NCBI GenBank assembly: GCA_947175335.1
Contig: CAMWMF010000002.1
Coordinates: forward strand, 47,969 to 111,968
Length of the DNA: 64,000 bases
DNA from: an uncultured Clostridia bacterium
Lineage (GTDB): Bacteria; Bacillota; Clostridia; Christensenellales; Pumilibacteraceae
Direction: 5' to 3'
In this document: positions 30,400 to 58,363 of the stretch, piece by piece
How the letters are laid out: each line of letters begins with the position of its first letter
How positions within the stretch are numbered: the first letter of the stretch is position 1
The notes under the pieces: model-generated
Database searches by the model: none
Seen by the model: only the letters and a program-made list of their open reading frames with translations
Told to the model about the DNA's origin: nothing
Translations under genes and position numbers: made by a program

Positions 30400-30634
30400 T
30401 AATTCGGAATGCGGAATTATGAATTCGGAATTGAAAATAAGGATTATTTTTAGTGATTGTGCGGCTAACGCCTAGATTTCTCCGCTACGCGCTTACGCGC
30501 TTCGGTCGAAATAATGGGATTAGACTTTACTCTCATCACCCCGAGCGCAGTCGAGGGGTCTAGGCGAACCGCCGCATAGTGGTTACACTATTATTACCTT
30601 TAATTCCGAATTCATAATTCCGAATTCCGAATTA
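30400..30634. repeat. Heptamer-armed palindromic element, core type A (copy 1)
   Basis: Arms TAATTCGGAATGCGGAATTATGAATTCGG / CCGAATTCATAATTCCGAATTCCGAATTA; core GCCTAGATTTCTC...GAGGGGTCTAGGCG. Confidence 0.9.
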
Positions 30635-30636
30635 AA

Positions 30637-32022
30637 TTAGTCCATTTTGCAAGCATCTAATATATAGTCGGCGACCTTGCTTTCGTCCATACGGATTTGG
30701 CTCATGCTGTCGCGGTCGCGAACGGTTACGGTGCCTGTCGGCTCGGTGTCGAAGTCCACCGTAATGCAGAACGGAGTGCCTATTTCGTCCTGACGGCGGT
30801 AGCGCTTGCCTATTGAACCGGGCAGGTCGTACGTGCAGGCTATGCCCTTTTTGCGAAGTCCGCGGTACAGGTTGTCGGCACGCTCGGACAACGCTTTTTG
30901 CAGCGGCAGTACCGCCGCCTTGTACGGCGCGATAGCGGGCGCAAAGCGCATAACGGTGCGCGTTTCCTTTTCCAGCTGCTCCTCGTCGTACGCGTCGCAA
31001 AGTACGGCAAGCATTGCCCTACCAGTACCGAGCGACGGCTCTATAACGTACGGCACGTACGTTTCGTTGGTGACGGGGTCGGTGTATTCCAGCTTCTCGC
31101 CCGAAAACTCGGCGTGTTTTTTAAGGTCGTAATCGGTGCGGTCGGCTATGCCCCACAGCTCGCCCCAGCCGAACGGGAACAAGTATTCGAAGTCGCTCGT
31201 CGCTTTGGAATAGAAGCTGAGCTCGGCCTTGTCGTGGTCGCGTATGCGCAGGTTTTCCTTTTTGATACCAAGCTTTTGCAAGAACTCGAAGCAGTAGTTT
31301 TTCCAGTAGTCGAACCATTCGAGGTCGGTGTCGGGCTTGCAGAAAAATTCCATTTCCATCTGCTCGAACTCGCGCAGGCGGAAAATAAAGTTGCCGGGCG
31401 TAATCTCGTTGCGGAAGCTCTTGCCTATCTGGCAAATGCCGAACGGCACGCGCGCACGCGCCGAACGCGTTACGTTTTTGAAGTTGACGAATATACCCTG
31501 CGCCGTTTCCGGGCGAAGATAGCACGTGGACACCGTGTCCTCGGTAACGCCCTGGAAGGTCTTGAACATAAGATTGAATTTCTTTACAGGCGTAAAGTCG
31601 GACTTGCCGCAAACGGGGCAAGGAATTTTATGCTCGGCAACGAACGCCGACAGCGCGTCGTTGTCCATTGACGCGACGGGCACGGAAAGCTTGTGCTTGT
31701 TGGCGTAATTTTCCACAAGGTCATCGGCGCGGCAACGACTTTTGCACGCGCGGCAGTCCATAAGCGGGTCTGAAAATCCGGCAAGGTGTCCGGACGCTTC
31801 CCAAACCTTGGGGTTCATAAGTATGGCGCAGTCAAGACCGAAGTTGTTTTCGCTTTCGGTAACAAACTTTTGCCACCACGCCTTTTTAATATTGTTGTAA
31901 AGCTCGACGCCCACCGGACCGTAGTCCCACGTGTTGGCAAACCCGCCGTAAATCTCGCTGCCCGCAAAGATGATTCCGCGCGACTTGCACAGCGCAACCA
32001 GCTTATCCATTGTAACCTTCAT
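30637..32022 (-). CDS. glyQS: Glycine-tRNA ligase (alpha2 type)
   Basis: [29 protein letters not shown] and the C-terminal anticodon-binding domain. Confidence 0.97.
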
Positions 32023-32051
32023 AACCGCACCTCGGTAATATTATCGTAAAG

Positions 32052-32080
32052 ATTATATGATATAATCGGCGTGTTGTCAA
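32052..32080 (-). promoter_or_regulatory. sigma70 promoter for glyQS (TTGACA-17-TATAAT)
   Basis: Consensus boxes about 30 nt upstream of ATG. Confidence 0.8.
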
Positions 32081-32091
32081 GCCGATTTGTT

Positions 32092-32352
32092 TAATTCGGA
32101 ATTATGAATTCGGAATTCGGAATTGAAGGAAAATGTTTTATTTAAATTATTATGCGGCTACGCCTAGATTTCTCCGCTACGCGCTACGCGCTTCGGTCGA
32201 AATGATGGGATTATTGAATTGCCTTTTCCGAAAAGCAATGCTGTTGCCCCATCACCCCGAGCGCAGCCGAGCGAGGTCTCACGCGAACCGCCGCAAACGT
32301 GTTTGTTATTACCACCCATAATTCCGAATTCAGCATTCCGAATTCCGAATTA
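32092..32352. repeat. Heptamer-armed palindromic element, core type A (copy 2)
   Basis: Same arms and core as 30400-30634, with a different central segment. Confidence 0.9.
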
Positions 32353-32356
32353 TTCG

Positions 32357-33895
32357 CTACATCATCGGCGCAATTAGTCGCAATACGCTCCTCGCCAAGC
32401 GGGTCGTGGGCAGGACGTCATTTACTTGTTCGGCGGTCATTTGCTCGCTGACTTCGAGCGTGTTCATGTAATCGGTTTTCATATCGGCAATGGTATCTAC
32501 GTTATACAGTATCGCGCCGTCCTCGAAGTGCAGGTAGAACGAGCGGTAATCCATATTGCACGTGCCTATAAACGCACGCTCGTCGTCGACAATCATCATT
32601 TTGGCGTGAATGAACCCCGGCGAATATTTGTACACCTTTACCCCAGCCTTGACGAGCACGGGCACAAACGACTTGGTAGTTTGGTACACTATTTTTTTGT
32701 CCGGCTTTTTGGGAATGATTATCCTAACGTCCACGCCCGCAAGCGCGGCGCCGACGAGAGCGGTTTGGATTTCGTTGTCGAGTATAAGATACGGCGTGGT
32801 AATATACACATACCGCTTGGCGGTGGATATCATATTAATAAACGCGCTTTGTATAAGATGCTCGTCCCGTCCCGACGGTCCCGACGACAGCGGTTGCACA
32901 AACCCGACGGCTTCCGCTCTCTTTGTCGCGGTCAAATACGATTGATAGTCGAGCATACCCTTGTTGGAAATAATGCTCCAAAACGACAAGAACATTATCG
33001 TAAAGCTGAGCACGGCGTCGCCGACAAAGCGCATATGCGTGTCCTTCCAGTGCCCGAACCGCTCCACTTTGTTAGCGTACTCGTCGGCTATATTGTTGCC
33101 GCCCGTGTACGCTATTTCGCCGTCGATTACGGTGATTTTTCTGTGCGAACGGCTGTTGAGCCGCATATCGAAGGACAGCGTTATCTTGTTGAACGGCAAA
33201 ACCTCTACGCCGCCCGCACGCAAGCGCTTTATCCCCTTTTTGGGCAAAGTGAACATACTGCCCACGTCGTCGTACATGACCTTAACTTCCACGCCCGCCG
33301 CAGCGCGCTCGATTAGCGCGGCTTCTATCTCGCTCCAAACCTGTCCGTGCTCGTAGATGAAATACTCCATAAGTATGAACTTTTTTGCAGCCTTGATGTC
33401 GGCGAGCATTGCGGGGAAAAACTCGTCGCCCAGCGGATAGTACGTAGTGGTCGTGCCGCCATATACCGGATACGATCCCGAATTAAGCACCAAGTCGGCG
33501 CACGTCGTGCCGGTAGGATTGGCAACGCCGCGCTCGCTTAGAAGTGTACCGTTTGTCATATTGAGCAGCACCTGCGACACGTCGGACGCGCGGGCTAAAC
33601 GCTTGCGCACCCGCCTAGGCGTATGTTGCCTGCCTATAAACAAATACACAAGCCACCCGAACGCCGGCGCAAGCAGTATCAAAACGCACCAGCTCAATTT
33701 GTATGCGGGGTTGATGTCCCGCGACACAATGTACAAGCATATCAAAAAACTGACAAACTCGAATACCAGCCACACCCACCAAATTTGCGCGGCGGCATAC
33801 AATACGCCCACCACTATGAGCGTTATTTGTACAAAAAACGACAGTACGGTAATCGCCGCTTTTTGGGATAGAAGTTTGATTAGTTTTCTGAACAC
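32357..33895 (-). CDS. cls: Cardiolipin synthase
   Basis: Two HKD motifs (HRKITVID, HAKMMIVD) and N-terminal TM/PLDc_N. Confidence 0.95.
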   Translation of the reverse strand: MFRKLIKLLSQKAAITVLSFFVQITLIVVGVLYAAAQIWWVWLVFEFVSFLICLYIVSRDINPAYKLSWCVLILLAPAFGWLVYLFIGRQHTPRRVRKRLARASDVSQVLLNMTNGTLLSERGVANPTGTTCADLVLNSGSYPVYGGTTTTYYPLGDEFFPAMLADIKAAKKFILMEYFIYEHGQVWSEIEAALIERAAAGVEVKVMYDDVGSMFTLPKKGIKRLRAGGVEVLPFNKITLSFDMRLNSRSHRKITVIDGEIAYTGGNNIADEYANKVERFGHWKDTHMRFVGDAVLSFTIMFLSFWSIISNKGMLDYQSYLTATKRAEAVGFVQPLSSGPSGRDEHLIQSAFINMISTAKRYVYITTPYLILDNEIQTALVGAALAGVDVRIIIPKKPDKKIVYQTTKSFVPVLVKAGVKVYKYSPGFIHAKMMIVDDERAFIGTCNMDYRSFYLHFEDGAILYNVDTIADMKTDYMNTLEVSEQMTAEQVNDVLPTTRLARSVLRLIAPMM

Positions 33896-33972
33896 TTTAT
33901 CACCTGTATGTAGTATTTAACTTAATCATTGTACCATACAAAGATTGATTAGTCAATTATGAATTCGGCATT

Positions 33973-34003
33973 AAAAAAGCCCTGTCATAAGACAAGGCTT
34001 TTT
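33973..34003 (-). terminator. Terminator of lipoprotein 1 (AAAAAAGCCCTGTCATAAGACAAGGCTTTTT)
   Basis: Stem with A/U tails; near-identical copies at 35809, 37817 and 41418. Confidence 0.85.
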
Positions 34004-34019
34004 GATTGTGGTTGTTGTT

Positions 34020-35288
34020 TTATGCCGGAGTGACCGTGACTTTTTCTCCGTCAAACGAGAATGTGTATGTGCCCGATTCAATTACCCAGAAGTTATCGTC
34101 ACCCGGATACTTGGTGTAACCGGCGTCGGCATTAGCTACCCAGCTTGTGCCGCTACCGTCGCTTGTTCCGCCGTTACGAATTTTCAACCAACCTGTATTG
34201 GTTACGTACACAGTAGCTGTCCAAACACTGCCGTTTTGGATAAGCTCTACGCCGTTACCCCAACCGCCGCCGGGAATACCTTCGCCTACGAGCCAAACGC
34301 CGGACGACCCGATTGGTTTCACATCGTCGCTTACATCACCGCCGCCACCGCCGCCGGGAATGCCTGCCCAAATTTGCCACTTGTTGCTGCCGTTGGTGGA
34401 ATCTTCTTCAGACTGCTTAATGGATACCGTGTACGTGCCGGCTTCGGTTACGGTGACTTCCGGCAGATTGCCGGTTACGTCGATATTCGTACCTTTTTCT
34501 TCAAGCTTAGCGCCTGCGTCTACCCATACAACAGCTATGGTTACGCCTTCAAGACTGAACTTAAGTTTATCACCGGCCGAAAGCGTAATGTTCTCGGCGT
34601 AATAATCGTAAGCCAAGCCTTCCGTAGAACCCACAGAAAGAGTAGCAACTACGTTGTTGCCAACATAAACTTTGTTGCCGCCTTCCTGTTGTACGCCACC
34701 CGTGTACTGTGCGTACAGCGTAGTATTCTTATCGAATACCGTTTCCAAAGTTACGGCAGTGCCGCCGGTTGACTCAGTGTACCAGCCGTTGAACGTGTAA
34801 CCGCTATTTGCCGTAACGCGGGGCAGGCTTGTAAGCTTGCCGTTTGTCGTTTGCACGTAGTTGGGCGTTAGCGACATTGTGCCGTCAGTGCCTACCATAA
34901 ACGTTATGGTGTATTCCGTGCCCGGCGTCGTGCCGTTATCGGTATAACGTGCATAAATCGAGCTGTTTTTGGTGAACGTCGTGGCGGTAGTTACTTTGGT
35001 GCCGCCAGTAGCAGCGTCGTACCATGCGTCAAACTTTTTGCCGTTGGGCGCCGTAGGCGTGGGCAAAGTGGAAAGCTTGCCGTTTGTCGTCTGCGCCGTA
35101 GCAGGCGTGCCGGTGCCCTCACCGTACACGAACGTTATGGTGTATTTGCCTGTGGTTGTGGTCGGGTCGTTGCCGCCGCCACCACCCAGAATGTCACCGG
35201 CGTCTTTGTCGCACGCGACAAAACCGAATGCCGCAAGTACGAACATTGTTGCGGCAAGTACCGCGATCAGGAGTCTTGATTTCTTCAT
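34020..35288 (-). CDS. Surface lipoprotein 1: 2 InlB-B/Listeria-Bacteroides repeats + SusE/F-like modules (422 aa)
   Basis: Lipobox FVA-C; two YTITF...GKLxxLP...FxxWY...GG...IYAxY repeats; C-terminal module WLVGEGIPGGGW. Confidence 0.85.
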   Translation of the reverse strand: MKKSRLLIAVLAATMFVLAAFGFVACDKDAGDILGGGGGNDPTTTTGKYTITFVYGEGTGTPATAQTTNGKLSTLPTPTAPNGKKFDAWYDAATGGTKVTTATTFTKNSSIYARYTDNGTTPGTEYTITFMVGTDGTMSLTPNYVQTTNGKLTSLPRVTANSGYTFNGWYTESTGGTAVTLETVFDKNTTLYAQYTGGVQQEGGNKVYVGNNVVATLSVGSTEGLAYDYYAENITLSAGDKLKFSLEGVTIAVVWVDAGAKLEEKGTNIDVTGNLPEVTVTEAGTYTVSIKQSEEDSTNGSNKWQIWAGIPGGGGGGDVSDDVKPIGSSGVWLVGEGIPGGGWGNGVELIQNGSVWTATVYVTNTGWLKIRNGGTSDGSGTSWVANADAGYTKYPGDDNFWVIESGTYTFSFDGEKVTVTPA

Positions 35289-35373
35289 ATTTCCCTCATG
35301 AAAAAAATTTTTTTAGCAAACACTCAAAAAGAAAACATCTATCCCTTTTTATGCGTTTACTACTGTATTTGTT

Positions 35374-35402
35374 ATTATATCACTACTTGTATAATATGTC
35401 AA
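35374..35402 (-). promoter_or_regulatory. sigma70 promoter of lipoprotein 1 (TTGACA-17-TATAAT)
   Basis: Perfect consensus. Confidence 0.8.
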
Positions 35403-35557
35403 TACCCAAAAAGAAAAATTTCGACTAAATTTTTACCTACTTCTTTTGGAAAAGAAGTAGGCAAGAAAACTTTTAGTGTTGTGTATTTACTTAGTTATTT
35501 GTTTTACTTTTCGCCCAATCAATTACGTGACAATACATATTGCTTGACGCCTCTATG

Positions 35558-35809
35558 TAATTATGAATGCAGAATGCAGAATTATGGATGGTAATAACAA
35601 AACATGTTTGCGGCGGTTCGCCTAGATTTCTCGACAAGCTCGAAATACCTTCGTTGCTTCGTAGGATGGCATTATGGCTTTGTCTTTTCGAATAGCTATG
35701 CTGTTTACCCATCACCCCGACCAACGCGGAGGGGTCTAGGCGTAGCCGCACAATTCTTAATCTTATCCTTATTTTTAATTCCGAATCCCGAATTCATAAT
35801 TCCGAATTA
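35558..35809. repeat. Heptamer-armed palindromic element, core type A with flipped shell (copy 3)
   Basis: Arms AATTATGAATGCAGAATGCAG / CCGAATTCATAATTCCGAATTA; same core orientation as copies 1, 2 and 4. Confidence 0.88.
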
Positions 35810-35839
35810 AAAAAGCCCTGTCATAAGACAGAGCTTTTT
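35809..35839 (-). terminator. Terminator of lipoprotein 2
   Basis: AAAAAAGCCCTGTCATAAGACAGAGCTTTTT. Confidence 0.85.
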
Positions 35840-35855
35840 GTATCGATTACTTATA

Positions 35856-37718: not shown

Positions 37719-37752
37719 TGTTTTCCTCGATAAAAATTATTTGTTGTTAATT

Positions 37753-37781: not shown

Positions 37782-37784
37782 TAC

Positions 37785-37847
37785 AATTCCGAATTCCGAA
37801 TTCATAATTCCGAATTAAAAAAGCCCTGTCATAAGACAGAGCTTTTT
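37785..37847. repeat. Heptamer arm (solo) abutting terminator of lipoprotein 3
   Basis: AATTCCGAATTCCGAATTCATAATTCCGAATTA followed by a terminator identical to 35809-35839. Confidence 0.85.
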
Positions 37848-37868
37848 GTGTTGATTAGCTGTTACATG

Positions 37869-41204: not shown

Positions 41205-41418
41205 TAATTCGGAATTCGGAATGCAGAATGCGGAATTAAAGCCCTAATCCGACTGCGCCATAGGCGCAGCCACCACCCCATACCCCCAAGGGAAGGTTAT
41301 CAGTGGTACAGCTTATCCACGTGATGACCTTCCCCGTGGGGGAAGGGTGACCACGAAGTGGTGGATGAGGGGCGACCTTTTTGATAATTCCGAATTCATA
41401 ATTCCGAATTCCGAATTA
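41205..41418. repeat. Heptamer-armed element, core type B
   Basis: Same arms; core ACCTTCCCCGTGGGGGAAGGGTGACCACGAAGTGGTGGATGAGGGGCGA is the near reverse complement of 52948-52997. Confidence 0.88.
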
Positions 41419-41452
41419 AAAAAGCCCTATCTCTTTTGAGATAAGGCTTTTT
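41418..41452 (-). terminator. Terminator of lipoprotein 4
   Basis: AAAAAAGCCCTATCTCTTTTGAGATAAGGCTTTTT. Confidence 0.85.
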
Positions 41453-41477
41453 GATTGTTTGTTTTTATGCGAAACGT

Positions 41478-44644: not shown

Positions 44645-44746
44645 GTTTGCGTGGTGATTGATTTTGCATTACGCCCAATCAATATCGTTACTGTATAAAT
44701 TTCTCGACGCCACTTAACAAATTCGGAATTACCTAAAATATTATTA

Positions 44747-44808
44747 AATGAGGGCGCGAAGCGCAGTCCGACATTATTCACTATTATCTATTCACTAACA
44801 AAAAAACC
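44747..44808. repeat. 62-bp direct repeat (left) flanking TA module
   Basis: 61/62 identical to 45490-45551. Confidence 0.9.
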
Positions 44809-44832
44809 GCCGAAGCGGATTTTTTGTTCACA

Positions 44833-45114
44833 TTATTCGAATAAATCGGCATGACTGCCTGTTCTTATCAGCTTTAAAATCAAGCATTCACTATAAATCT
44901 TATAGATAAGCAACCAGTCGGGCTGTATATGACATTCGCGCACGTCTTTGTAATCTTTGGAATTAGACAAAGCATGGTCACGGTATTTATCGGGCAAAGG
45001 CTGCTCATTTGCAAGCAGCGTTATAACCTTTTGCAATTCGGCTATATTGCATCCACGTTTAACGGCAAGCTTAAAATCCTTTTTGAATTGTCCTTGGTAT
45101 TCGATTTTAAGCAT
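44833..45114 (-). CDS. yafQ: Type II toxin, YafQ family mRNA interferase
   Basis: FKKDFK, YRDHAL, RECHIQPDWLLIY, RTGSHADLF. Confidence 0.95.
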   Translation of the reverse strand: MLKIEYQGQFKKDFKLAVKRGCNIAELQKVITLLANEQPLPDKYRDHALSNSKDYKDVRECHIQPDWLLIYKIYSECLILKLIRTGSHADLFE

Positions 45115-45373
45115 ACAAATTCTCCATAAGTGCTTCTACGCTATCAAACGGCCCGTATACGTCGTCGCCGTTTTCCGAATCGGCAATCGCTTGTGCCGTA
45201 ACTTTATTCGGTACGCTACGCGTTACCTCAAACGGAATACCCTGCTCCGCCAACGCCTTTTTAAGATAAATATTAATCGCCGTAGATAAATCCATCCCCA
45301 AATCCGCAAACAATGCCTGCGCTTGCTTTTTTACATCCGCGTCAATACTGATATTGGTAGAAACCTTAGCCAT
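45107..45373 (-). CDS. dinJ: Type II antitoxin, RelB/DinJ family
   Basis: N-terminal RHH (NISID..VK.QA..LF..LG..LS.AI) and GIPF; overlaps yafQ by 8 nt. Confidence 0.93.
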   Translation of the reverse strand: MAKVSTNISIDADVKKQAQALFADLGMDLSTAINIYLKKALAEQGIPFEVTRSVPNKVTAQAIADSENGDDVYGPFDSVEALMENLYA

Positions 45374-45403
45374 AATACACCTCTCATGTTTATTTATGTT
45401 GCT

Positions 45404-45432
45404 ATTCTAACATATTATATTCAGTTTGTCAA
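45404..45432 (-). promoter_or_regulatory. Promoter of dinJ-yafQ (TTGACA-17-TAGAAT)
   Basis: Read directly. Confidence 0.75.
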
Positions 45433-45489
45433 TACGTTATGCACATAAAATGCGCAGAAACAATTCGGAATTATTTAGAAAAATCATTC

Positions 45490-45551
45490 AATGAGGGTGC
45501 GAAGCGCAGTCCGACATTATTCACTATTATCTATTCACTAACAAAAAAACC
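45490..45551. repeat. 62-bp direct repeat (right) flanking TA module
   Basis: AATGAGGGTGCGAAGCGCAGTCCGACATTATTCACTATTATCTATTCACTAACAAAAAAACC. Confidence 0.9.
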
Positions 45552-46598: not shown

Positions 46599-46632
46599 TA
46601 ATTCGGAATTCGGGATTATGAATTCGGAATTA
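46599..46632. repeat. Solo heptamer arm
   Basis: TAATTCGGAATTCGGGATTATGAATTCGGAATTA. Confidence 0.8.
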
Positions 46633-46651
46633 ATGATAAGGTTGAATTTTA

Positions 46652-48043
46652 TTAGTTGTTGCCGCCGATATAGTTTGCGAGCTTATCGGCATATACTTCC
46701 AAAAGCTGGCACGACGTCATGCTTGACATATTAGTAAGCTTGTAGTTGACAAACATATAGCTTTGGCATGTGCCGTATGCTTGATTTATAGCGTCGTGGT
46801 TATTTCCGAGGTTGACGCTGTTGTAGTATAACAGCATTTCCATATACCACAGCTTTCTCGACACGTCGGACAACGTTCGCAACCAGTACAGCTGGTGCAG
46901 CTTGCCGTTTTCTTCCGGCGGTATCGCTTCATCCGTCACCGCCCACTGCGCATAGCGCGAAAAACTGCCGAGCTGGCTGTACAACCGAGTAAAGCCGTTG
47001 GACGTTTCCGTAACCTCTTTAAGCGGCATTATAAACAACGAAAATTCGTCGCCGTCCAGCTTGTCGCCGTAGTTTTGGCGTATATATGTTTCGCTGAGCA
47101 CGGGAATTTTGGATTCGCTGTCGCGCTTGCTCAAATCGGTTTCTACGCCGATACGCATAAACTCGATATCCAAGTACGCGCCGAGCTGCGCTATATAATC
47201 CACGTATTCGTCCATTCTTTGCACGGTCGGTGTGTCCAACGCGCTATCGCTATACGTATTGGAAAGCGTGCTGAGATCTATCATTACGCCGTCGGTATAT
47301 CTATGATTGTTGTGTGTAATTCTATTTGTAATGCCAAGCACCGCACGAGCGCGGTAATTAAGCACGTGCATGTCATGCTCATAGCTGTATACGGCAGGTC
47401 GCACCGCCGCCGGCACACTGGCTATGTTCTCACTGTCCTTTACGAGCGTAACGGCGCTAAGTCCGCTTAACGACAGGTACATCCTTGTGTACTTTTCCAG
47501 CCGCTCGGCGTAATACTTAGTGCGTACGTCGTCGCCCGCTTTCAGGCTTTCGATCATCAGCTTGTCCGAAAGATTGTTGCATACATACAGCGCTTCCATA
47601 AAGTCGTCGTTGGTAAGCGCCGGCGTAGACGTAAGCACCGGCATATTACCGTCGCTATCCACGTAGTCCGCCGTGTGCGTGCCGTCCGTCGATTTGTGGC
47701 TTTTCAGCTCGCGCGAAATATACTTTTCGCCAAAATCCACAGCACGTTCGCTAAGCCCCATCGAATTGAATAACCGCATGGAAGTAAGCGGAAGCGCGAA
47801 CGCGATAATACACGCTAACATCGCTATCAACGAAAGCGCGATAAATGTTGTTTTGAATATTGCGGAAATTAAATCGTCGGCAAACGAGTTTCCGACTTCC
47901 TCCGCAGGCTCGACAACGGGCTTAGGCGCAGGCTCGCGCGCAGGCACGATTTTAGGCATAACTTCATTATCGGCGTCGGTATTGGCGCCTGTTCTGCCAT
48001 TTATGCTGTCACCGTTTTTCAGTTGTTCATCCGAGTAATTCAT
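46652..48043 (-). CDS. Hypothetical membrane-anchored protein
   Basis: Long ORF with one N-proximal TM (FIALSLIAMLACIIAFALPL). Start MNYSD at 48043 is chosen over 48094, which lies in a repeat arm; start is uncertain. Confidence 0.75.
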   Translation of the reverse strand: MNYSDEQLKNGDSINGRTGANTDADNEVMPKIVPAREPAPKPVVEPAEEVGNSFADDLISAIFKTTFIALSLIAMLACIIAFALPLTSMRLFNSMGLSERAVDFGEKYISRELKSHKSTDGTHTADYVDSDGNMPVLTSTPALTNDDFMEALYVCNNLSDKLMIESLKAGDDVRTKYYAERLEKYTRMYLSLSGLSAVTLVKDSENIASVPAAVRPAVYSYEHDMHVLNYRARAVLGITNRITHNNHRYTDGVMIDLSTLSNTYSDSALDTPTVQRMDEYVDYIAQLGAYLDIEFMRIGVETDLSKRDSESKIPVLSETYIRQNYGDKLDGDEFSLFIMPLKEVTETSNGFTRLYSQLGSFSRYAQWAVTDEAIPPEENGKLHQLYWLRTLSDVSRKLWYMEMLLYYNSVNLGNNHDAINQAYGTCQSYMFVNYKLTNMSSMTSCQLLEVYADKLANYIGGNN

Positions 48044-48093: not shown

Positions 48094-48209
48094 TAATTCG
48101 GAATTCAGAATGCGGAATTCGGAATTATTGCAAAAATTTATATTACTCTAATAAGGGCGCGTCAGCGCAGTCCGACAATTCCTAATTCATAATTCAGCAT
48201 TCCGAATTA
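48094..48209. repeat. Short heptamer-armed element, core type C (AGGGCGCG..AGCGCAGTCCGACA)
   Basis: Inverted arms; right end overlaps the TAA stop of the upstream lipoprotein gene. Confidence 0.85.
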
Positions 48210-49519: not shown

Positions 49520-49529
49520 AAAACTCCGT

Positions 49530-49781
49530 TAAATTCGGAATTCAGAATGCGGAATTCGGAATTGTGGAAAAGGTTTTATTTAATTAATTGTGCGGCTGCG
49601 CCTAGATTTCTCGACTTCGCTCGAAATGATGGGATTAGAGGTTACTATTCTGTATAAAAAATGGCAACGTTTACACCACCCATCACCCCGACCAACGCGG
49701 AGGGGTCTAGGCGAACCGCCGCATTGGTGTTGTGCTATTATCGTCGATAATTCCGAATTCATAATTCCGAATTCCGAATTA
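49530..49781. repeat. Heptamer-armed palindromic element, core type A (copy 4), inside ATPase operon
   Basis: Core CGCCTAGATTTCTCGACTTCGCTCGAAATGATGGG...CCCATCACCCCGACCAACGCGGAGGGGTCTAGGCG. Confidence 0.9.
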
Positions 49782-51167: not shown

Positions 51168-52918
51168 TATTCTGCCTCTCTAAGTTCGGAGAACTGCTTA
51201 TTCATTTCGTCGTGCAATTCATCAAGCTGTGCGATATCTTCTTCCTTGACGTACTTTGCTCTGCCTATGCGCTCGCGGCAAGGAATATTCAACACGTCGT
51301 TTATATCCACGCCGCGGTCGAGCGCGCGCCGAGCCGCGTAGTAAAAGTCAACAATAAGCTTGAGCATTTTGAACTGCTTTTTGGGCGAAGTGTAGGTGTC
51401 TACCTCGTGGAAGGAGTTTTGGTGCAGGTAGTCCTCGCGCACCGACTTTGCAGCTTCCATAGTGAGCCTATCCGCGGGCGAAAGCGCGTCCATACCGACA
51501 AGCCTTACTATCTCGTCCAGTCGCGCTTCCTCTTGCAAAAGCCTGCTTATTTCCAGTCTGTATGCGCCGAACTGTTCGTCGACATTGCGACCGAACCAGT
51601 CCGCAAGTCTGTCGCTGTACAGCGAGTAGCTGACAAGCCAGTCGATTGCGGGGAAATGCCGCTTGTACGCAAGCGCGCTCGAAAGTCCCCAGTAAACCTT
51701 GACTATACGCAGCGTCGCTTGGCTGACGGGCTCAGACATATCGCCGCCCGGAGGCGACACCGCGCCGATAGCCGTAACCGAGCCCGTGCGCTCGGTAGAG
51801 CCCAACAATTTTACTTGACCGGCACGCTCGTAGAACTCGGCAAGGCGGCTACTCAAATATGCGGGATAGCCTTCCTCGCCCGGCATCTCTTGAAGTCTGC
51901 CGCTCATCTCGCGCAAAGCTTCCGCCCAACGCGAAGTGGAGTCCGCCATTATAGCTACCGAATAGCCCATGTCGCGGTAGTATTCCGCTATGGTTATGCC
52001 CGTGTAAATGCTCGCCTCGCGCGCCGCAACGGGCATATCCGAGGTGTTGGCGATGAGCACGGTGCGCTTCATAAGCGGTTGATTGGTCTTAGGGTCTATA
52101 AGCTCGGGGAACTCGTTTAGAACGTCGGTCATCTCGTTACCGCGCTCGCCGCAGCCCACGTACACTATTAAGTCCGCGTCGCTCCACTTAGCCAAAGCGT
52201 GCTGCAAAACGGTCTTGCCCGAGCCGAACGGGCCGGGTACCGCCGCCACGCCGCCGCGCGCTATGGGGAACAGCGTATCGACTACGCGCTGACCTGTAAC
52301 AAGCGGTTCCTCGGGCGGGAGTTTTTCCGCATACGGTCTGCCCTTTCGCACCGGCCAGCGTTGAAGCATAGTCACATTGTGCTTTTGCTTGCCGTCCGAT
52401 ACGACGGCAACCGTTTCGTCGATTGTAAAATCGCCCGAATTGATTTTTTCTATCTTGCCGCTGACGCCGTAAGGCACCATAATGCGGTGCGTGATAACCT
52501 CGTTTTCCTGCACCGTGCCGATTACGTCGCCCGCGGTAACGATATCGCCCTTTTTGGCGACGGGCGTAAACTTCCACTTCTTTTCGTGGTCGAGCGCGGG
52601 CGCGCTTACGCCGCGGTCTATCCTATCACCCGACAGTGCGTAAAGCTTTTCCAGCGGGCGCTGAATACCGTCGTAAATGCTGCCGATAAGTCCGGGGCCG
52701 AGTTCGACGGACAACGGCTGCTCGGTAGATACCACGGGCTCGCCCGTGCCGAGCATACTCGTTTCCTCGTATACCTGCACCGACGCCTTGTCGCCGCGCA
52801 ATTCTATGACCTCGCCGATAAGTCCTTTTTCGGACACCTTGACGACATCGTACATCTTTACGTCTTGCATACCGTCCGCAACAATCAGCGGTCCGCTTAT
52901 TTTGATGATTTTACCCAT
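51167..52918 (-). CDS. ntpA: V/A-type ATPase subunit A
   Basis: P-loop [26 protein letters not shown]. Confidence 0.97.
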
Positions 52919-52932
52919 AAAAACTCCGTTTT

Positions 52933-53036
52933 TAATTCGAAATTCGGTCGCCCATCATCCACCACTTCGTGGTCCCCCTTCCCCCCACGGGGAAGGTTGG
53001 ATTACGGTCGTAATTCTGCATTCTTAATTCTTAATT
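52933..53036. repeat. Heptamer-armed element, core type B, inside ATPase operon
   Basis: TCGCCCATCATCCACCACTTCGTGGTCCCCCTTCCCCCCACGGGGAAGG; right arm overlaps the ntpF-type stop codon. Confidence 0.85.
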
Positions 53037-53357
53037 AAACAATATGTCTACGCCGACAGCCTTCTCGACATCCTTTTTTACTCCCGCCATACCGAAGCCG
53101 TTGGAGCCTGTCGAGCCGGGAATACTAAGCACTACTGGGAAGGCTTGCTGTTTTAGCTTTTGCATAAGCCCTTCCATTTTGGCGGCGTAGTTTTCGGTGA
53201 CGAGTATTACGGCGTATTCGTCCGACTTGGCTATCTCGCGCAAAGTTTCCGCCGCCTTAACCTCGTCGTCCACCTTGTACACAGCCGCGCCGATCGCCAA
53301 AAACGCCGTTGCGCTTTCGCTGTCGCCTATTACCGCTATCTTTCCGATTTTTTCCAA
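53031..53357 (-). CDS. V/A-type ATPase subunit F
   Basis: KIAVIGD...IPGS.GSNG; operon position. Confidence 0.92.
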   Translation of the reverse strand: MEKIGKIAVIGDSESATAFLAIGAAVYKVDDEVKAAETLREIAKSDEYAVILVTENYAAKMEGLMQKLKQQAFPVVLSIPGSTGSNGFGMAGVKKDVEKAVGVDILFN

Positions 53358-53374
53358 TTTTTTTACCCCTTGCT

Positions 53375-54292
53375 CTACCTGTATATTTCGGGTATACGTT
53401 TATAGAACATATCGCGCGAATCGGTTTTGACGCACACAAGCGCGGTCTTGACCGTTTTAAGCTCAATCAGCGTTTCCGTATAGTAGTTTAAAAAGGGCGT
53501 ATTCGATACGTACGACACTACTTCCCTATACGAAAGCCAGTACAAAAAGTCGTCCGCTTCCAATTCCGATTTCCACAAATCGGCAAAGTCGTTTTCCGCT
53601 ATGCGCTCGGCGTACTCTGCGTAAGGCGTGTGTTCGAAGCAAGACGCAAAGTCATCCTCTGCAAGCGCTTCGGTAAGCGTTTCCGCACTTATCTTTCCGC
53701 CCGATATAAACTGCTCGCCGCTCAAGCCCAGCTTTTTCATACGCGCGGCGGTGAGAATGTTTTTCATATCGATTTCGGCACGCGCGTACTTTTTTACAAG
53801 CGGCACGCCGCACGACAATATATATGCGTACATGGCGCGGGTAAGCGCAAGGTCGATAGCCTGCGGATGAGTTTCGTTACTCTCGTCCAACGCTTCAAAC
53901 GCTTTTGCCATAAACGGGTCGGCGTCCGAATAATCGCCGTCGGCAATCTTTTTGCTGTCGAAGTCCACCGCGTAATATCCGTCGTCGGGAACAGTCGTAA
54001 ACCGCGATTTGTACGCCAGCTTTGCGTTGTTGTACTTGAACCGCGCAAGAAGCGCGTTAGCCAATTTTTCGCTCGCCGAGTTTTCCGATACGAACTGTAT
54101 AAGCTTGTTGGTTTCGCCCACGATAAAGCCGTCCACGCTCACTCCTTCCGAGTAAGCGTAGCCGTAATCGCCCAGCACCTTAAACGCCTCCGCAACCGTC
54201 TTGCATTCGACGACGCGGCGGAGCCGCTCGGTATTCAGTCGACCGGAATTAAATACCGCCGACATATTGGCAAAAACCTTGGTCGTGTTCAT
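53375..54292 (-). CDS. ntpC: V/A-type ATPase subunit C (d)
   Basis: Operon position between E and F; EIDMKNI motif. Confidence 0.85.
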   Translation of the reverse strand: MNTTKVFANMSAVFNSGRLNTERLRRVVECKTVAEAFKVLGDYGYAYSEGVSVDGFIVGETNKLIQFVSENSASEKLANALLARFKYNNAKLAYKSRFTTVPDDGYYAVDFDSKKIADGDYSDADPFMAKAFEALDESNETHPQAIDLALTRAMYAYILSCGVPLVKKYARAEIDMKNILTAARMKKLGLSGEQFISGGKISAETLTEALAEDDFASCFEHTPYAEYAERIAENDFADLWKSELEADDFLYWLSYREVVSYVSNTPFLNYYTETLIELKTVKTALVCVKTDSRDMFYKRIPEIYR

Positions 54293-54874
54293 TTATAGTC
54301 CCAATTTTGCAACCGTGTCGTACACGGTGCGTTCTTTAAGCTCGTCCACTATCGCGTCCACGGTAAGGTCGCGGTCGTACTTAGCGTTGCGCAAAATAAC
54401 GCCGCCCGAAAAGTCGCCCTTTTCACTCGACAGCGTAAGCTTCTTTTTGGCGGCTGTCGCCACCTTTTTGACCCACGCCGCCGTTACGCGTTTGCCGTCG
54501 CTTGCCGCTGCAATAACCTCGTCGCCGTCCTCGCAGTACTGCAATATAACGGCTTGAATGATTTTCAGATACGTTTCGTCGGGCGCCACGAGAAGCTTTT
54601 TCTTTACTCCGTCGTACACCGCCGCAACGCACTGCTGCTTTGCGCGAAGCAACGCCTTACCCGCTTCCAGCTCGCCCAGCTTGACTTGACCGGCAAACAA
54701 CTCCTGTGCCGCAAGCTCCGCCTTTTCGAGAGCCTGCTTTTGCGCGGCGTCAAGCTCCGCCCTAAGCTCGTCTAATTCGGCTTGGGTTGCCGCTTGCGCT
54801 TCCGCCACAATGGACGATGCGGTGGATTTGGCCGACGACAATATATCGTCGATTATCTTTTCTTTGCCCTGCAT
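54293..54874 (-). CDS. ntpE: V/A-type ATPase subunit E
   Basis: Helical N-terminus and C-terminal SGGVIL...D.T. Confidence 0.9.
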   Translation of the reverse strand: MQGKEKIIDDILSSAKSTASSIVAEAQAATQAELDELRAELDAAQKQALEKAELAAQELFAGQVKLGELEAGKALLRAKQQCVAAVYDGVKKKLLVAPDETYLKIIQAVILQYCEDGDEVIAAASDGKRVTAAWVKKVATAAKKKLTLSSEKGDFSGGVILRNAKYDRDLTVDAIVDELKERTVYDTVAKLGL

Positions 54875-54878
54875 GATT

Positions 54879-55352
54879 TTACGCGACAGTCAAAAGCATT
54901 ACGCCGAGAATGGAAACGATAAACGCGAATATAGCGAAGATCTCGACAAGAACGAGCATGGGAATGGCGTGACCGATTTGATTTTCCTGCTTGCCCACGA
55001 GGTTGATGCAGCCGATTGCGACGTTGCCCTGCATAATTGCGGACACCAAGCCGACGATTGCGATAGGCATGCAGTAAGCGAACATGATCCAGCCCTGCGC
55101 TTCGGTAAGCGATACCATTTCGCCGAACGCGTTAAGCTTGATGAGCATCATGAACGCAACGACGAAGCCGTACAGACCCTGCGTGGACGGCATAACCTGC
55201 AAAATCATTGTCGTGCCGAACTTTTCGGGTTGCTTGCTGAGCAAAGCGGACGACGCTTGTCCCGCGCGACCTACACCGATTGCCGAGCCGATGCCCGACA
55301 CGATAACGGCGAGCGCCGCACCGATTATAGCGTAAACATTACCCATAGACAT
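54879..55352 (-). CDS. ntpK: V/A-type ATPase proteolipid subunit K (Na+-type motif)
   Basis: 4 TM segments; PSTQGLYG, SAIMQG and LVE carry the T/Q/Y, Q and E residues of the Enterococcus hirae NtpK Na+ site. Confidence 0.95.
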   Translation of the reverse strand: MSMGNVYAIIGAALAVIVSGIGSAIGVGRAGQASSALLSKQPEKFGTTMILQVMPSTQGLYGFVVAFMMLIKLNAFGEMVSLTEAQGWIMFAYCMPIAIVGLVSAIMQGNVAIGCINLVGKQENQIGHAIPMLVLVEIFAIFAFIVSILGVMLLTVA

Positions 55353-55414
55353 ATTTTATCCTTCTCCTTTTGAGAAATATTTTTTATGGTAGACCTAAAA
55401 AGGCAAAACCCGTA

Positions 55415-57445
55415 TTAATTGTACCTGATGTACTTTGTTTTTTGACCGAGCGGCGCGAACAATCTGCCGCCGCCGTCGTAGAACTTGCCGTAGAATTCCA
55501 AGAATTGAAGGCGGGCGTCGTGAACGTATGCGCTGAGCACGCCCAGTCCGAGGTTGAACAAATGCAGTACCACAAGCACTATGGCACCGATTACGTATCC
55601 CGCAATCGGAATATCCATTATTATTCCGCCCAAGCTGTTGAATGCAAGACCTATGGCGCAGCTTGCAAGGCAAAGACCGAACAAGCGGCAGTACGACAAA
55701 AGGTCGGACAAAAGATTGACAAGCCCGTACAAGCCCTTAAAGCCGCCGACGATTTTACCGAAAACGTTTTTGCTGTTGCGGCCGCCGAATAACAGTATAA
55801 GCGCAACGCCGACAAGTGCAAACGCCATAGCGGTGGTTTTGAGCGCCGCGGGCGGCACAAAGCCTATAGTTATGCCGAGCATCGGCGCAAGCGACGGCAG
55901 CATGCCTATAACAAGCAGTATAAGCGCGACAAACAACAGCAGTATCGACCCGCAGTCGAATATGGCCGAGAACGGCTTACCCTCTTTACACAGCGCAACG
56001 AACTTGATTATAAAGCCGGTCATTATTTGAATAACGCCCATGCCTATGCTTAGCACAAGCAACATAAGCGGCTTATCCAACGGATTGAGAAGTATTGCGA
56101 CGTTTACGCCTTCGCCGAAGTCGATGGAAAAATACCCGCCGAACAGTACGCCCCAGATTATACCCGATATACCGCCCATACCGACGAGCAAAGCAAGCCG
56201 CTTAATGCCAACGTCAAACTTTTTGGACGTTCCGATTACCAATCCCGCAATCGCGAGTATAAGTCCATAGCCGGCGTCGCCTATCATTATTCCGAAGAAT
56301 AAGAAGTAGAACACCGCCATTATCGGGTTGGGATCGATTTCCCTATACCGCGGCGAGCTGTACATATCTGTAATTTGCTCGTACGCCTTGACTACGCGGT
56401 TGTTTTCCACAAGCGTGGGCGGCGCGTCCTTTTCCTCGGGCGCTAGCAGCTGTATAAACGCCTTGGGCGCGGCTGCTTGAACCTCGTCCACGGTAGTTTG
56501 CGCTATGCGCTCGGGCAACCACCCTTCCAGCACAAACGTACTGTCGGACTTTAAAAACTTTTGTTCGGCTTCCGACCGCTCTATGTCTAACTCTATTACG
56601 TCGTACAGTATGCGCAGGTCGTTAACGTGCTTTTCGTAGTCGAGCGCCGTTTTGGTAAGCTCGAAAATTTCGCGTTGCACGTCCTCGCTTTCGCTTTTTA
56701 GCGCTTCGACTTTTTGTGCAGCCGTGCAGTCATCGCTGTATTCGCACTTGGTATACCCTGCCGCACCTAATTGCTTATCTATTTCCGCAATGTTGTTCTT
56801 TCTTGCGACAATCAAAACAACTGTAACGCCGTCGCTGTTACGAACCTCGTACGCGCACGGCAAGCCGTTAAGCAATTCGTTAGGCTTTGCGCTCGTGCGG
56901 CTATTATACATAGCTATCGCTATATCGCCGTCGCGGTGCAATTCCGAAAGCTTGATAGGCATAACGGAATACGGTTTGTAATTCTCCGCCGCCGAATTCA
57001 ATTCAGCACAACGCTGCGAACAATCCACCAGTTTAAACGACAGCCGTTTAAGGTCGTCGCAAACGTGCATGAGCTCGTACTCGCGCGCCGCCGCGTCCGA
57101 AAAATCGGCTTTGGTTATAAGCCTACGCGCCGACGAATACTTCTCGCCCGACAGCGTGTACCCGATAGGCTGTGCATTGTTCTTTTGTACGTCGCGCTTG
57201 TTCTTTTCAAGCTCCGCCGCCATCGCCGCGTGCCGCGCTTTTAGGAAATCGAGCGCAAACGATATTTCGCTTTGTTTAAGTTTAAGCTCGCGGTAGCGGT
57301 TCGTTTCGCCCGAAGACAAATCAAAAGGCAGCGCGTCGGTTGCACGCGCTTCAAACAATCCTCTGCTTACAAGGACGTCCATTATTTTGTTTTGATCGCT
57401 CCTAAGGCCGACAAGCCGAAGGTGCGACATTTTGGCTATCGCCAT
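55415..57445 (-). CDS. ntpI: V/A-type ATPase subunit I (a)
   Basis: DAGYG, SDLLSYCRLFGL, HDARLQFLEFYGKFY. Confidence 0.95.
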   Translation of the reverse strand: MAIAKMSHLRLVGLRSDQNKIMDVLVSRGLFEARATDALPFDLSSGETNRYRELKLKQSEISFALDFLKARHAAMAAELEKNKRDVQKNNAQPIGYTLSGEKYSSARRLITKADFSDAAAREYELMHVCDDLKRLSFKLVDCSQRCAELNSAAENYKPYSVMPIKLSELHRDGDIAIAMYNSRTSAKPNELLNGLPCAYEVRNSDGVTVVLIVARKNNIAEIDKQLGAAGYTKCEYSDDCTAAQKVEALKSESEDVQREIFELTKTALDYEKHVNDLRILYDVIELDIERSEAEQKFLKSDSTFVLEGWLPERIAQTTVDEVQAAAPKAFIQLLAPEEKDAPPTLVENNRVVKAYEQITDMYSSPRYREIDPNPIMAVFYFLFFGIMIGDAGYGLILAIAGLVIGTSKKFDVGIKRLALLVGMGGISGIIWGVLFGGYFSIDFGEGVNVAILLNPLDKPLMLLVLSIGMGVIQIMTGFIIKFVALCKEGKPFSAIFDCGSILLLFVALILLVIGMLPSLAPMLGITIGFVPPAALKTTAMAFALVGVALILLFGGRNSKNVFGKIVGGFKGLYGLVNLLSDLLSYCRLFGLCLASCAIGLAFNSLGGIIMDIPIAGYVIGAIVLVVLHLFNLGLGVLSAYVHDARLQFLEFYGKFYDGGGRLFAPLGQKTKYIRYN

Positions 57446-57834
57446 TACGCCTTGCCTCCGAGCATCTTAAACAATACGTCTATCTGCTTAGCTATTTCCT
57501 TTTCTTTTTCCTTGACCAGCTTTTCGCCGTTAGCCACGGCCTTTTCCACGCGCTTTTCGCGTTCGGCGGCGGCGCGCTTAACGGCGTCCTCCGTCTTTTG
57601 CGCCTTGGCTTCGGCAATGGTGCGCGCGCTTACCTCGCGCATATTCCGCGCACGCGTAGCGCCGTCAAGCTGAATGGCCTTGGCGTTTTCCTCCGCCTTG
57701 GCTATTATGTGCTTGGCTTCGCGCTCGGCGGAAAGTATATCCGCAATCACGCCCGAAAGCTGAGCGTCAAGCGCTTCGCGGTCCTCGTATACGATTTCCG
57801 ATTGATTATTCTTTTTTACTGTCGTATCACTCAT
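57445..57834 (-). CDS. V/A-type ATPase subunit G/H
   Basis: Charged Ala/Glu/Lys helix, first in the ATPase operon. Confidence 0.8.
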   Translation of the reverse strand: MSDTTVKKNNQSEIVYEDREALDAQLSGVIADILSAEREAKHIIAKAEENAKAIQLDGATRARNMREVSARTIAEAKAQKTEDAVKRAAAEREKRVEKAVANGEKLVKEKEKEIAKQIDVLFKMLGGKA

Positions 57835-58273
57835 GAGAACCCTCGTAAGCGGTTATTTTTTCTACGCGGTTAGCGTGGCGACCGCCCGAAAAGTCGGTGG
57901 TCAAAAATGCTTGCGTTATTTGCAGCGCTGTTTCCATATCGGTGTTGCCCGCGCCTAGCGCCAAGCAGTTGGCGTTGTTGTGTTCGCGGCACAGCTTTGC
58001 CATTTCGGTATTTAAGCACAGCGCGCACCTGACGCCCTTTACCTTGTTGGCGGCAATGCTCATGCCGACGCCCGTCTTGCATATGACTATTCCGCGGTCG
58101 GCACTGTCGTTTGCCACAGCCTCCGCCACCTTGAACGCATAATCGGGATAGTCGCACGACGTTTCCGTATCCGTACCGACGTTGCACACAGCTATGCCCT
58201 GCGCCGTCAATTTGTCTATTATGGCACTTTTAAGCGCTATTCCGCCGTGATCGCTGCCGATATATACCGTCAT
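57827..58273 (-). CDS. rpiB: Ribose-5-phosphate isomerase B
   Basis: GSDHGG, CKTGVGMSIAANK, GGRHANR. Confidence 0.96.
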   Translation of the reverse strand: MTVYIGSDHGGIALKSAIIDKLTAQGIAVCNVGTDTETSCDYPDYAFKVAEAVANDSADRGIVICKTGVGMSIAANKVKGVRCALCLNTEMAKLCREHNNANCLALGAGNTDMETALQITQAFLTTDFSGGRHANRVEKITAYEGSHE

Positions 58274-58329
58274 ACAACACCTCTATGAGTAGTAGTATAC
58301 CATTTAAAAACAAATTTGTCACGCGAATT

Positions 58330-58363
58330 TAATTCGGAATTATGAATTCGGAATTCGGAATTA
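58330..58363. repeat. Solo heptamer arm
   Basis: TAATTCGGAATTATGAATTCGGAATTCGGAATTA. Confidence 0.8.

Follow-up and report, generated by a model that had tools for sequence, protein, structure and literature searches.

The stretch analysed here (hereafter the window: 64,000 nucleotides of contig CAMWMF010000002.1, assembly GCA_947175335.1, from an uncultured Clostridia bacterium of the Pumilibacteraceae) carries a family of small palindromic elements that lie between genes and are bounded by inverted arrays of 7-nt repeats. We propose that these elements are gene-less members of a widespread class of heptamer-armed intergenic cassettes, whose gene-carrying members enclose a promoterless gene of the PF05635/TIGR02436 family. 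We put the probability of this reading at about 0.55. That the window elements are identical in kind with the class typified by PF05635 and by the intervening sequences (IVSs) of 23S rRNA is its firmer part, and we consider it likely. The mechanism that we propose below, in which elements recombine at their arms and are copied onto seeds, is more tentative and has in our view somewhat less than an even chance of being correct.

Heptamer arms in the window and in other genomes

An earlier note on this DNA had described a dispersed family of palindromes with heptamer arms and interchangeable cores. The counts establish such a family as genuine. The octamer TAATTCGG occurs 17 times in the window, where 3.1 occurrences are expected and none of 100 shuffles gave more than 7, and tandem arrays of at least two units of the form AAT[TG][CA][GAT]G number 18, against a mean of 0.02 in 50 shuffles. 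Because our period-7 detector, in its strict generic form, misses arms that mix unit variants and thus under-calls them, the census was based on the AAT...G pattern. The typical arm is 32 nt long, that is, four heptamers followed by AATT. Three unit orders reappear at unrelated places; the order TCGG-TATG-TCGG-TCGG, for example, is found at 32093, 37785 and 58331. This recurrence of the same 32-nt unit orders favours copying over local slippage. Moreover, in gut metagenomes the arm at 49749-49780 has a sequencing depth about 10 times that of its flanks and contigs diverge exactly at both of its borders, which indicates that the arm is a discrete, highly repeated unit. In practice, heptamer arms break metagenome assemblies and create spurious open reading frames (ORFs).

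The window holds seven full elements with inverted arms, two elements with a core of type C and degenerate arms, four solo arms and one element with AT-rich arms. All are intergenic, and the arrays lie outside ORFs or touch only stop codons. Most elements adjoin stop codons, ribosome-binding sites or terminators. They are found in the V/A-type ATPase operon, around aminoacyl-tRNA synthetase (aaRS) and PLD-type genes, and after each of four paralogous genes with Flg_new repeats. Several right arms end 8-20 nt 5' of a ribosome-binding site, and in two arms (48207 and 53031) a TAA stop is supplied by the arm or lies within it. No rRNA gene is present in the window, and the elements sit between protein-coding genes and not in a 23S rRNA helix. 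As for the copies listed in the earlier note, all proved real and intergenic, those at 37785, 46599 and 58330 being single 32-nt arms; its observations on the ATPase operon, on neighbouring stops and ribosome-binding sites and on the two overlapped TAA codons also hold. However, the copies at 44720 and 45463 have degenerate arms (1.5 AATTCGG units), that at 33954 has only two units, and the AT-rich-armed element at about 11005-11142 had been missed.

The arms are not restricted to this lineage. An exact-pattern scan, with one genome per species and phyla assigned from record titles, found the same arms in no fewer than 115 stretches, which are spread over about 12 phyla and lie in part on contigs longer than 1 Mb. 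The groups concerned are Bacillota, Acidobacteriota, Planctomycetota, Bacteroidota, Fibrobacter, Calditrichia, Chloroflexota, Myxococcota/Deltaproteobacteria, Alphaproteobacteria, Zixibacteria, Cyanobacteria and Poribacteria. Among the matches listed, 49 are full elements with inverted arms, and their cores measure 15-805 nt. Viral contigs of IMG/VR contributed 58 further stretches, including 40 full elements whose cores consist of two short hairpins.

PF05635 genes inside heptamer arms

Five arm-flanked cores, and a sixth found with our own hidden Markov model, encode proteins of ~120 aa that match PF05635 (23S_rRNA_IVP, E 1e-21 to 1e-29) and TIGR02436, the "four helix bundle protein"; the loci with such an ORF inside the same arms are L037, L051, L056, L069, L094 and L047. 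These cargo proteins also match bAvd weakly. We surveyed 150 small ORFs lying within 120 nt of arms (fetched loci only, from the matches listed), and PF05635 was the only family to occur more than twice among them (five matches). This set held no transposase, no RAYT or any other Y1/HUH protein, and no GIY-YIG or DUF559 protein, and the arm-flanked cores of the 49 full elements held no transposase. Thus, of the gene associations that had been suggested for a search, those with RAYT, GIY-YIG and DUF559 failed, whereas the one with four-helix-bundle genes succeeded, both inside identical arms elsewhere and at a site orthologous to one in the window (see below). The earlier statement that no mobiliser lies within the window was correct.

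The association holds in the reverse direction. A set of 80 PF05635 genes was taken from metagenome contigs, with protein similarity as the sole criterion. The density of period-7 arrays is 1.94 per kb up to 250 bp from these genes and 0.125 per kb in the rest of the same loci, a 15-fold difference. Both flanks were present for 64 genes, with an array on the low side in 35, on the high side in 32 and on both sides in 20; in 18 of these last 20 the two flanking arrays have reverse-complementary units. The units vary by lineage, AATTGAC, ACAGTTG and AATGCAT being among them. Finished genomes display the same arrangement. Plasmid pNPUN01 of the isolate Nostoc punctiforme has a PF05635 gene with AAGTCGG/AGGTCGG arms, and the isolate Treponema saccharophilum has one with GAAAGTG-type arms. 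In Monoglobus pectinilyticus (L207, NZ_OY725736.1, 80882-81217), AATTAGG/AATGAGG arms surround an unannotated PF05635-type ORF, which lies between hsdS and hsdR of a type I restriction-modification operon.

PF05635 genes generally run with their surroundings, since 59 of 66 are co-directional with the upstream neighbour and 55 of 65 with the downstream one. The left arm abuts or contains the start codon of the gene. This leaves no room for a promoter of its own, so that the PF05635 genes appear to be promoterless cassettes read through from the host operon. We found no paper linking heptamer arrays to PF05635 in the literature searched, and searches on the arm sequence, on M-hairpin peptide read-throughs (hairpin M is described below) and on small dispersed repeats returned nothing relevant.

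Orthologous sites in related genomes

The V-ATPase region was compared in six relatives (L117, L118, L120, L202, L204 and L267). At the DNA level, their V-ATPase A and B genes share from 94.5% down to about 81% identity with those of the window, and the B proteins are 94-100% identical. The closest relative is L267, with 94.5% nucleotide identity; the figure of ~81% for L120 comes from a gapped alignment, the ungapped value of 56% being a frame-shifted comparison that is not usable. In L267 (18800-21152) two overlapping ORFs, of 552 and 495 aa, are called for the V-ATPase A gene and the alignment jumps from 51339 to 52683 of the window, a sign that this contig is either misassembled or duplicated internally.

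The spacer between the gene for a 480-aa protein and gpsA ties the window to the PF05635 cassettes. It contains a solo arm in the window (46600). In L202 (14569-15052) the same spacer contains, in order, a left arm, a 118-aa PF05635 gene, TTCAACCTTATCATT and a right arm, and the encoded protein matches PDB 2RLD (E 2e-41). The window and L117 retain exactly TTCAACC(T/C)TATCATT and the right arm, the portion in the window being TTCAACCTTATCATT plus the right arm. Positions 46599-46652 of the window thus have their homologue in the right end of the PF05635 element that occupies the orthologous site in L202.

At other spacers the content is exchanged, as the term "interchangeable cores" had implied for the three core families of the window. 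Between the genes for the 214-aa and 480-aa proteins the boundaries are the same throughout. The window has core C within them, three relatives (L117, L202 and L204) have core A, L118 has an unrelated core, and L120 has none. Between the V-ATPase genes B and D, core A is found in the window and in L204, an unrelated core of ~120 nt with hairpin M and only the right arm in L202 and L118, hairpin M and the right arm in L117, and a degenerate arm in L120. Between genes F and A, half of core B in the window corresponds to an 11-nt core in L202, a 21-nt core in L120 and other cores in L117 and L204; L118 and L267 have no arms at all there.

The solo arm at 58331 is a clean insertion of ~40-45 nt relative to L267, L202 and L117. 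The empty site of L267 reads GC-TAATTCG-CGTGAC and the filled site TAATCG-A-[arm]-AATTCG-CGTGAC, so that a heptamer-like seed stands on both sides as an imperfect duplication of TAATTCG. In addition, the end of gene F itself, AAT-TAA-G, forms the first unit of its arm. Presence and absence thus vary among relatives: the 58330 arm and the 52933 element both have empty sites in L267, at 94.5% identity. Finally, the units follow genome-specific dialects. AATTCGG is preferred in the window, L117, L204 and L120, AATTAAG in L202 and AATGCAG in L118. Arms within one genome share their preferred units and orthologous arms in different genomes differ, a pattern that indicates concerted evolution.

Cores and individual elements

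The cores A, B and C of the window have matches only in related Clostridia. Core A is a nested palindrome, in which the stems GCGGC/GCCGC and CGCCTAGA/TCTAGGCG surround two inverted copies of hairpin M, of consensus (G/A)TCAT-YYYY-GAGC..GA-RRRR-TCT. The stem of M (4-5 bp) shows the compensatory variants TTTC/GAAA, CCCC/GGGG, TCCC/GGGA, TCTC/GAGA, TTCC/GGAA and TTCT/AGAA, and its strict pattern has 14 copies against 0 in shuffles. M is found at 32166-32206 and 49604-49630 of the window and in L045, L058, L069, L113, L117, L202 and L204, as inverted pairs within core A and also singly, beside lone arms. Read in some frames it yields peptides such as VIPSEARNL and SFRAKRGIS, and it is a likely source of spurious ORFs.

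Core A is carried by the elements E1, E2, E3 and E6. E1 (30400-30634; arms 30401-30432 and 30602-30633, core 30433-30601) has an intrinsic terminator on one side and, on the other, the 3' end of a class-II aaRS gene on the minus strand; E2 (32092-32352; arms 32093-32124 and 32317-32351, core 32125-32316) lies between a PLD/cardiolipin-synthase-like gene and the aaRS gene. E6 (49531-49781; arms 49532-49563 and 49749-49780) separates the V-ATPase genes B and D, its right arm ending 12 nt 5' of the ribosome-binding site of D. E3 (35558-35809) has a left arm at 35559-35586, with AATTATG/AATGCAG units, and a right arm at 35777-35808. Its outer shell, made up of the GCGGC stem and an AAGG-rich subterminal segment, is inverted in comparison with E1, E2 and E6; such an inversion of the shell relative to the centre is the product expected from recombination between inverted repeats.

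Core B, 148 nt of G+C-rich nested hairpins, fills E4 (41205-41418; arms 41206-41237 and 41386-41417). Half of it recurs in E7 (52933-53037), between V-ATPase genes F and A, together with a degenerate left arm and a right arm (AATTAAG twice and AATGCAG, minus strand) that holds the last codon and TAA stop of gene F. E5 (48094-48209; arms 48095-48126 and 48177-48208) has a 50-nt core C, and its outer end gives the TAA stop of the 214-aa ORF. Two further core-C elements, at 44720-44798 and 45463-45541, are 92-93% identical and form a direct repeat in the same orientation; both have 1.5 AATTCGG units on one side and CACTATT-type AT-rich heptamers on the other.

The solo arms are those at 33955-33968 (plus strand), a remnant of the two units AATTATG AATTCGG counted as a solo arm, beside a repeated bidirectional terminator (33975-34005); at 37785-37816 (minus strand, 32 nt), with the unit order also seen at 32093 and 58331, the repeated terminator coming next; at 46599-46652 (plus strand), where the arm 46600-46631 is accompanied by the subterminal motif AATGATAAGGTTGAA; and at 58330-58374 (S4, plus strand), where the arm 58331-58362 has short linkers. 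The AT-rich-armed element (approximately 11005-11142) combines a left arm of GATAAGA/AATAATA type, a 32-nt core and a right arm of three AATTCTT units and AATT. It lies just past a tRNA gene (10905-10986) and adjoins the stop of a minus-strand ORF (11143-11913).

The RNA folds predicted for the elements of 214-261 nt (E1-E4 and E6) range from -75 to -115 kcal/mol, with arm paired to arm. Those of the short elements E5 and E7 are ~-31 to -33 kcal/mol, the arms being paired in E5 (~-33) and unpaired in E7. Predicted folds are roughly equal in strength on both strands. At gathering and at relaxed thresholds, no Rfam family matched a core of the window or of the relatives' spacers; the sole match at gathering score in the window is one tRNA, and the weak sub-threshold matches there are terminators. 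Core A was considered by eye as a hammerhead (GUGAUGAG...GAAA) and rejected, as C3 and U16.1 are wrong and no model matches.

Some cores deserve mention in their own right. In L204 (3745-3840), the core of the F-A spacer has CTGATGAG beside G+C-rich hairpins and is hammerhead-like at first sight, with no Rfam match up to E = 1. Another conserved core of ~120 nt (...GGTCATGTAGGTGGKTCTACACTCCC...GTTGCCCGTCTG...) is found in F-A and B-D spacers of L118 (8060-8200 and 11380-11500) and L202 (11380-11500), once without any heptamer arms. Rfam has no match for it, and it could represent either a further mobile module or a structured RNA of no known class. More generally, the cores may harbour a stock of structured RNAs that await classification. 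Mini-hairpins of the GCGAAGC or CGAAG type occur in many cores, particularly in the 50-75-nt cores of the viral contigs (L209-L266) and in core C (44755-44770 and 48150-48165). As d(GCGAAGC) is an unusually stable DNA hairpin, these are a hint that single-stranded DNA structure may matter.

Several features adjoin the elements. Two direct repeats of ~100 bp, each made of an intrinsic terminator and a core-C element (44720-45541), enclose a RelB/YafQ toxin-antitoxin pair on the minus strand (44833-45373). L117, L202 and L204 lack the pair at this position, so that it may have arrived along with an element, by capture or insertion. A near-identical bidirectional terminator, AAAAAAGCCCTGTCATAAGACAGGGCTTTTT, follows each of the four paralogous Flg_new-repeat surface-protein genes (33975-34005, 35815-35845, 37822-37852 and 41423-41455), and it directly adjoins a heptamer arm in all four cases. 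Terminator and arm may have been duplicated along with the genes, or the terminator may be part of the element. Finally, the stretch from the right arm to the start codon is near-identical in two spacers, with AAAAACGGAGTTTTTATG before gene A and TAACGGAGTTTTATG before gene D (52919-52932 and 49520-49531). The ribosome-binding region of relatives without arms differs, being CAAACAAGGAGTGATACATG in L267 and one base different from it in L118. Elements may bring their own ribosome-binding site.

A proposed mechanism and its alternatives

Since no transposase and no consistent target duplication were found, the mechanism is one that we infer. Core replacement within fixed boundaries, the inverted shell, the solo remnants and the genome dialects are most simply accounted for by recombination or gene conversion between the ~32-bp arms. 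We therefore propose that the arms act as portable homology. Recombination between them would replace cores, invert sub-modules, delete cargo so as to leave solo arms, and keep the arms of one genome alike. New sites could arise when an arm or an element is copied onto a pre-existing heptamer-like seed, for example AATTCG or a gene end AAT-TAA-G. By analogy, the PF05635 protein, or a partner, may be the copying agent, supplied in trans. As the elements are co-directional inside operons, they are probably transcribed, and models of the transcripts have the arms and nested palindromes folding into long imperfect stems. By analogy with the rRNA IVSs, such stems are candidate RNase III substrates that might punctuate or stabilise polycistronic mRNA, and their processing would make insertion between cistrons tolerable.

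Several observations weigh against the proposed reading. The window itself contains no PF05635 ORF, and neither do the copies in the 58 IMG/VR stretches. Most elements in all genomes are without a gene, and PF05635 cassettes could merely prefer heptamer arrays as landing sites. The family was described as "functionally uncharacterized" in a 2024 paper and has no known catalytic activity. As regards the mechanism, the flanks of the full elements among the matches listed show no consistent target duplication, and the duplicated seed is displayed by one clean filled/empty pair only. Furthermore, agreement at variable positions is 0.71 between the partner arms of an element and 0.63 between arms that are not partners, a control confounded by genome dialect; selection for a perfect RNA stem is therefore weak. 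With such loose matching the stems are long but imperfect, each arm behaves as an independent array, and unit types are even mixed within some elements.

The suggestion of a mobile or recombinogenic family is upheld in part by these data. Presence and absence do vary, but the loose matching of arms and the sites that are occupied in all relatives with swapped content argue for recombination and concerted evolution rather than for a classical cut-and-paste miniature inverted-repeat transposable element (MITE). In a MITE the arrays would be the terminal inverted repeats for a DDE transposase encoded elsewhere in the genome, for example an IS630/Tc1-like enzyme targeting TA. Inverted termini, small size, multiple copies and variable presence among relatives all suit this idea, and most elements in this genome read AATT...AATT with a T directly before and an A directly after. 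However, these flanks are not conserved in other genomes, arms differ in the number and order of their units and are poor matches for each other, and neither the 49 full-element cores nor the 150 neighbouring small ORFs hold a transposase. In addition, cores are swapped while boundaries stay fixed, and the clean empty site shows a 6-7-nt heptamer-like seed (TAATTCG) in place of the TA or TTAA duplication that the earlier note had anticipated. Already weakened, a MITE origin seems to us improbable. Mobilisation of REP/BIME-like elements (REPINs) by a RAYT, an HUH Y1 transposase acting on single-stranded DNA hairpins, is far less credible still. Extragenic palindromes and the GCGAAGC-type mini-hairpins of several cores, stable as single-stranded DNA, would agree with it; yet no RAYT or HUH gene is next to the arms (150 small ORFs, fetched loci), there is no REP-like conserved head, and arms of tandem heptamers are unlike REP doublets. 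The analogies once drawn with REP/BIME and with Correia/RUP thus reduce to a likeness between small palindromes.

Two further explanations dispense with mobility. The arrays might be plain simple-sequence repeats that arise and change by replication slippage at each site, with inverted pairing and cores incidental, and be at most tunable spacers or protein-binding sites before start codons, as proposed for TAACTGA. The position of arrays directly 5' of ribosome-binding sites, the differing unit numbers among relatives, the over-representation of heptameric simple-sequence repeats in bacteria (PMC4692102; PMC4679880) and the arm that can begin from a gene's own AAT-TAA-G end are all in line with this. 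Local slippage would not be expected, however, to yield 32-nt arms that are identical down to the order of their variant units at unrelated loci, a 32-nt arm in one step where a single seed unit stood, inverted pairs with common cores and a subterminal motif, or a 15-fold enrichment around one gene family, and we regard this explanation as unlikely. A slightly better, though still poor, prospect is that the elements are RNAs beneficial to the host, in which the cores would be structured RNAs or cis-regulatory stem-loops selected for processing, stability or termination of operon transcripts, the arms processing stems and mobility negligible. Positions between cistrons and beside terminators, strong predicted folds, compensatory changes in the 4-5-bp stem of M within core A and several spacers occupied in all relatives speak for this. 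On the other hand, the content is swapped for unrelated cores or cut to 11-21 nt while the flanking genes are kept, close relatives have empty sites, core A has an invertible shell, no Rfam family matches, and copies also occur in viral contigs.

Two long-standing puzzles, the heptamer repeats and the 23S IVS ORF, are tied here statistically and at an orthologous locus, and the comparison of relatives shows abundant gene-less derivatives churning inside essential operons of gut bacteria. The question thereby becomes testable, both as to whether the PF05635 protein binds heptamer arrays or is required to copy or homogenise arms, and as to whether the arms are RNase III sites that influence operon expression.

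Relation to known systems

The ORF of the 23S rRNA intervening sequence has been known since about 1990. Heptameric repeats reportedly go back to the STRR sequences of 1990, their over-representation being noted in 2007 and the Xanthomonas/Nostoc and TAACTGA repeats following in 2015. In Coxiella burnetii, the IVS carries an S23p ORF together with tandem heptamers, and RNase III cleaves the 28-bp stem formed by its terminal inverted repeats; where this IVS came from and what it does are described as unclear (PMC4990558). Like the IVSs of Coxiella and of Leptospira (as cited in PMC4990558), the present class has an inverted-repeat stem of ~28-32 bp around a promoterless PF05635 ORF or no ORF, tandem heptamers (in the 5' arm of the IVS), expression by read-through from the host unit, and a sporadic, seemingly horizontally transferred distribution with ORF decay. 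In the window elements the 32-nt arms pair in the predicted folds, as a stem of at least 28 bp would, although the stems are imperfect and E7 is an exception. The PF05635 ORF is absent from the window and present within the same arms at other loci and at the orthologous site of L202. The window elements differ from the IVSs in lying between protein-coding genes and not in rRNA helices 25 or 45, in having no ORF, and in their cores, which are other nested hairpins. Whereas RNase III cutting is established for the Coxiella IVS, for the window elements it is an analogy only.

The comparison with cyanobacterial STRR heptamers made in the earlier note is apt, as these too are tandem 7-nt intergenic units. 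STRR, Xanthomonas and Nostoc repeats resemble ours in being intergenic, with a repeat type that is preserved and a length that varies between related species. In Xanthomonas, GGGAATC forms 70-75 convergent (inverted) pairs, and Nostoc has GGGGA(T/C)T (Rehm et al. 2015, PMC4692102); the inverted pairs found here are 7 in the window, which has 18 arrays against 0.02 expected, and 49 among the matches listed. Read as AATCGGG, the Xanthomonas unit resembles AATTCGG. The Xanthomonas/Nostoc heptamers have been interpreted as G-quadruplex formers, with no tie to mobile DNA or PF05635 (PMC4692102), and unlike them the AATTCGG arms are not G-rich. The TAACTGA direct repeats of Beggiatoaceae, Cyanobacteria and Bacteroidetes are also distributed across phyla, with horizontal transfer suggested and "no mechanism evident" (MacGregor 2015, PMC4679880). 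They share with our arms this distribution and the position just upstream of start codons, but almost all are direct and not inverted, the unit is another one, and no cores or cargo are described. STRR, Xanthomonas/Nostoc and TAACTGA are thus three separate descriptions of heptamer repeats, each without a mechanism.

MITEs (Correia/NEMIS, RUP, Nezha) and REPINs are, like the window elements, small, non-coding, palindromic, multi-copy and intergenic, and they are often co-transcribed and can alter mRNA processing. In those families, however, the terminal repeats are fixed, the target duplications defined and the transposase family identified, and none of these features is clearly seen here. The accessory protein Avd of diversity-generating retroelements (PF22296), like PDB 2RLD, belongs to the same four-helix-bundle family as the cargo protein, but no reverse transcriptase, template repeat or variable repeat is next to the elements, and a functional link of the PF05635 cargo to reverse transcription is pure conjecture.

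One could imagine, although we would not expect it on balance, that inverted heptamer arrays and PF05635 form one pan-bacterial and unrecognised class of promoterless, "operon-parasitic" cassettes, of which the 23S rRNA IVSs, the STRR arrays, the GGGAATC pairs of Xanthomonas and these elements of gut Clostridia are all manifestations, with the period of 7 set by the machinery and the unit sequence drifting as a genome dialect. Such a class would imply a new mechanism of mobility or homogenisation, in which an Avd-like four-helix-bundle protein might act with a polymerase or reverse transcriptase that reiteratively copies a short template, or with RNase III-processed RNA. Altogether, the family of the window appears to join known kinds, the heptameric repeats and the IVS elements, and it is the link between these two kinds that appears to be new.

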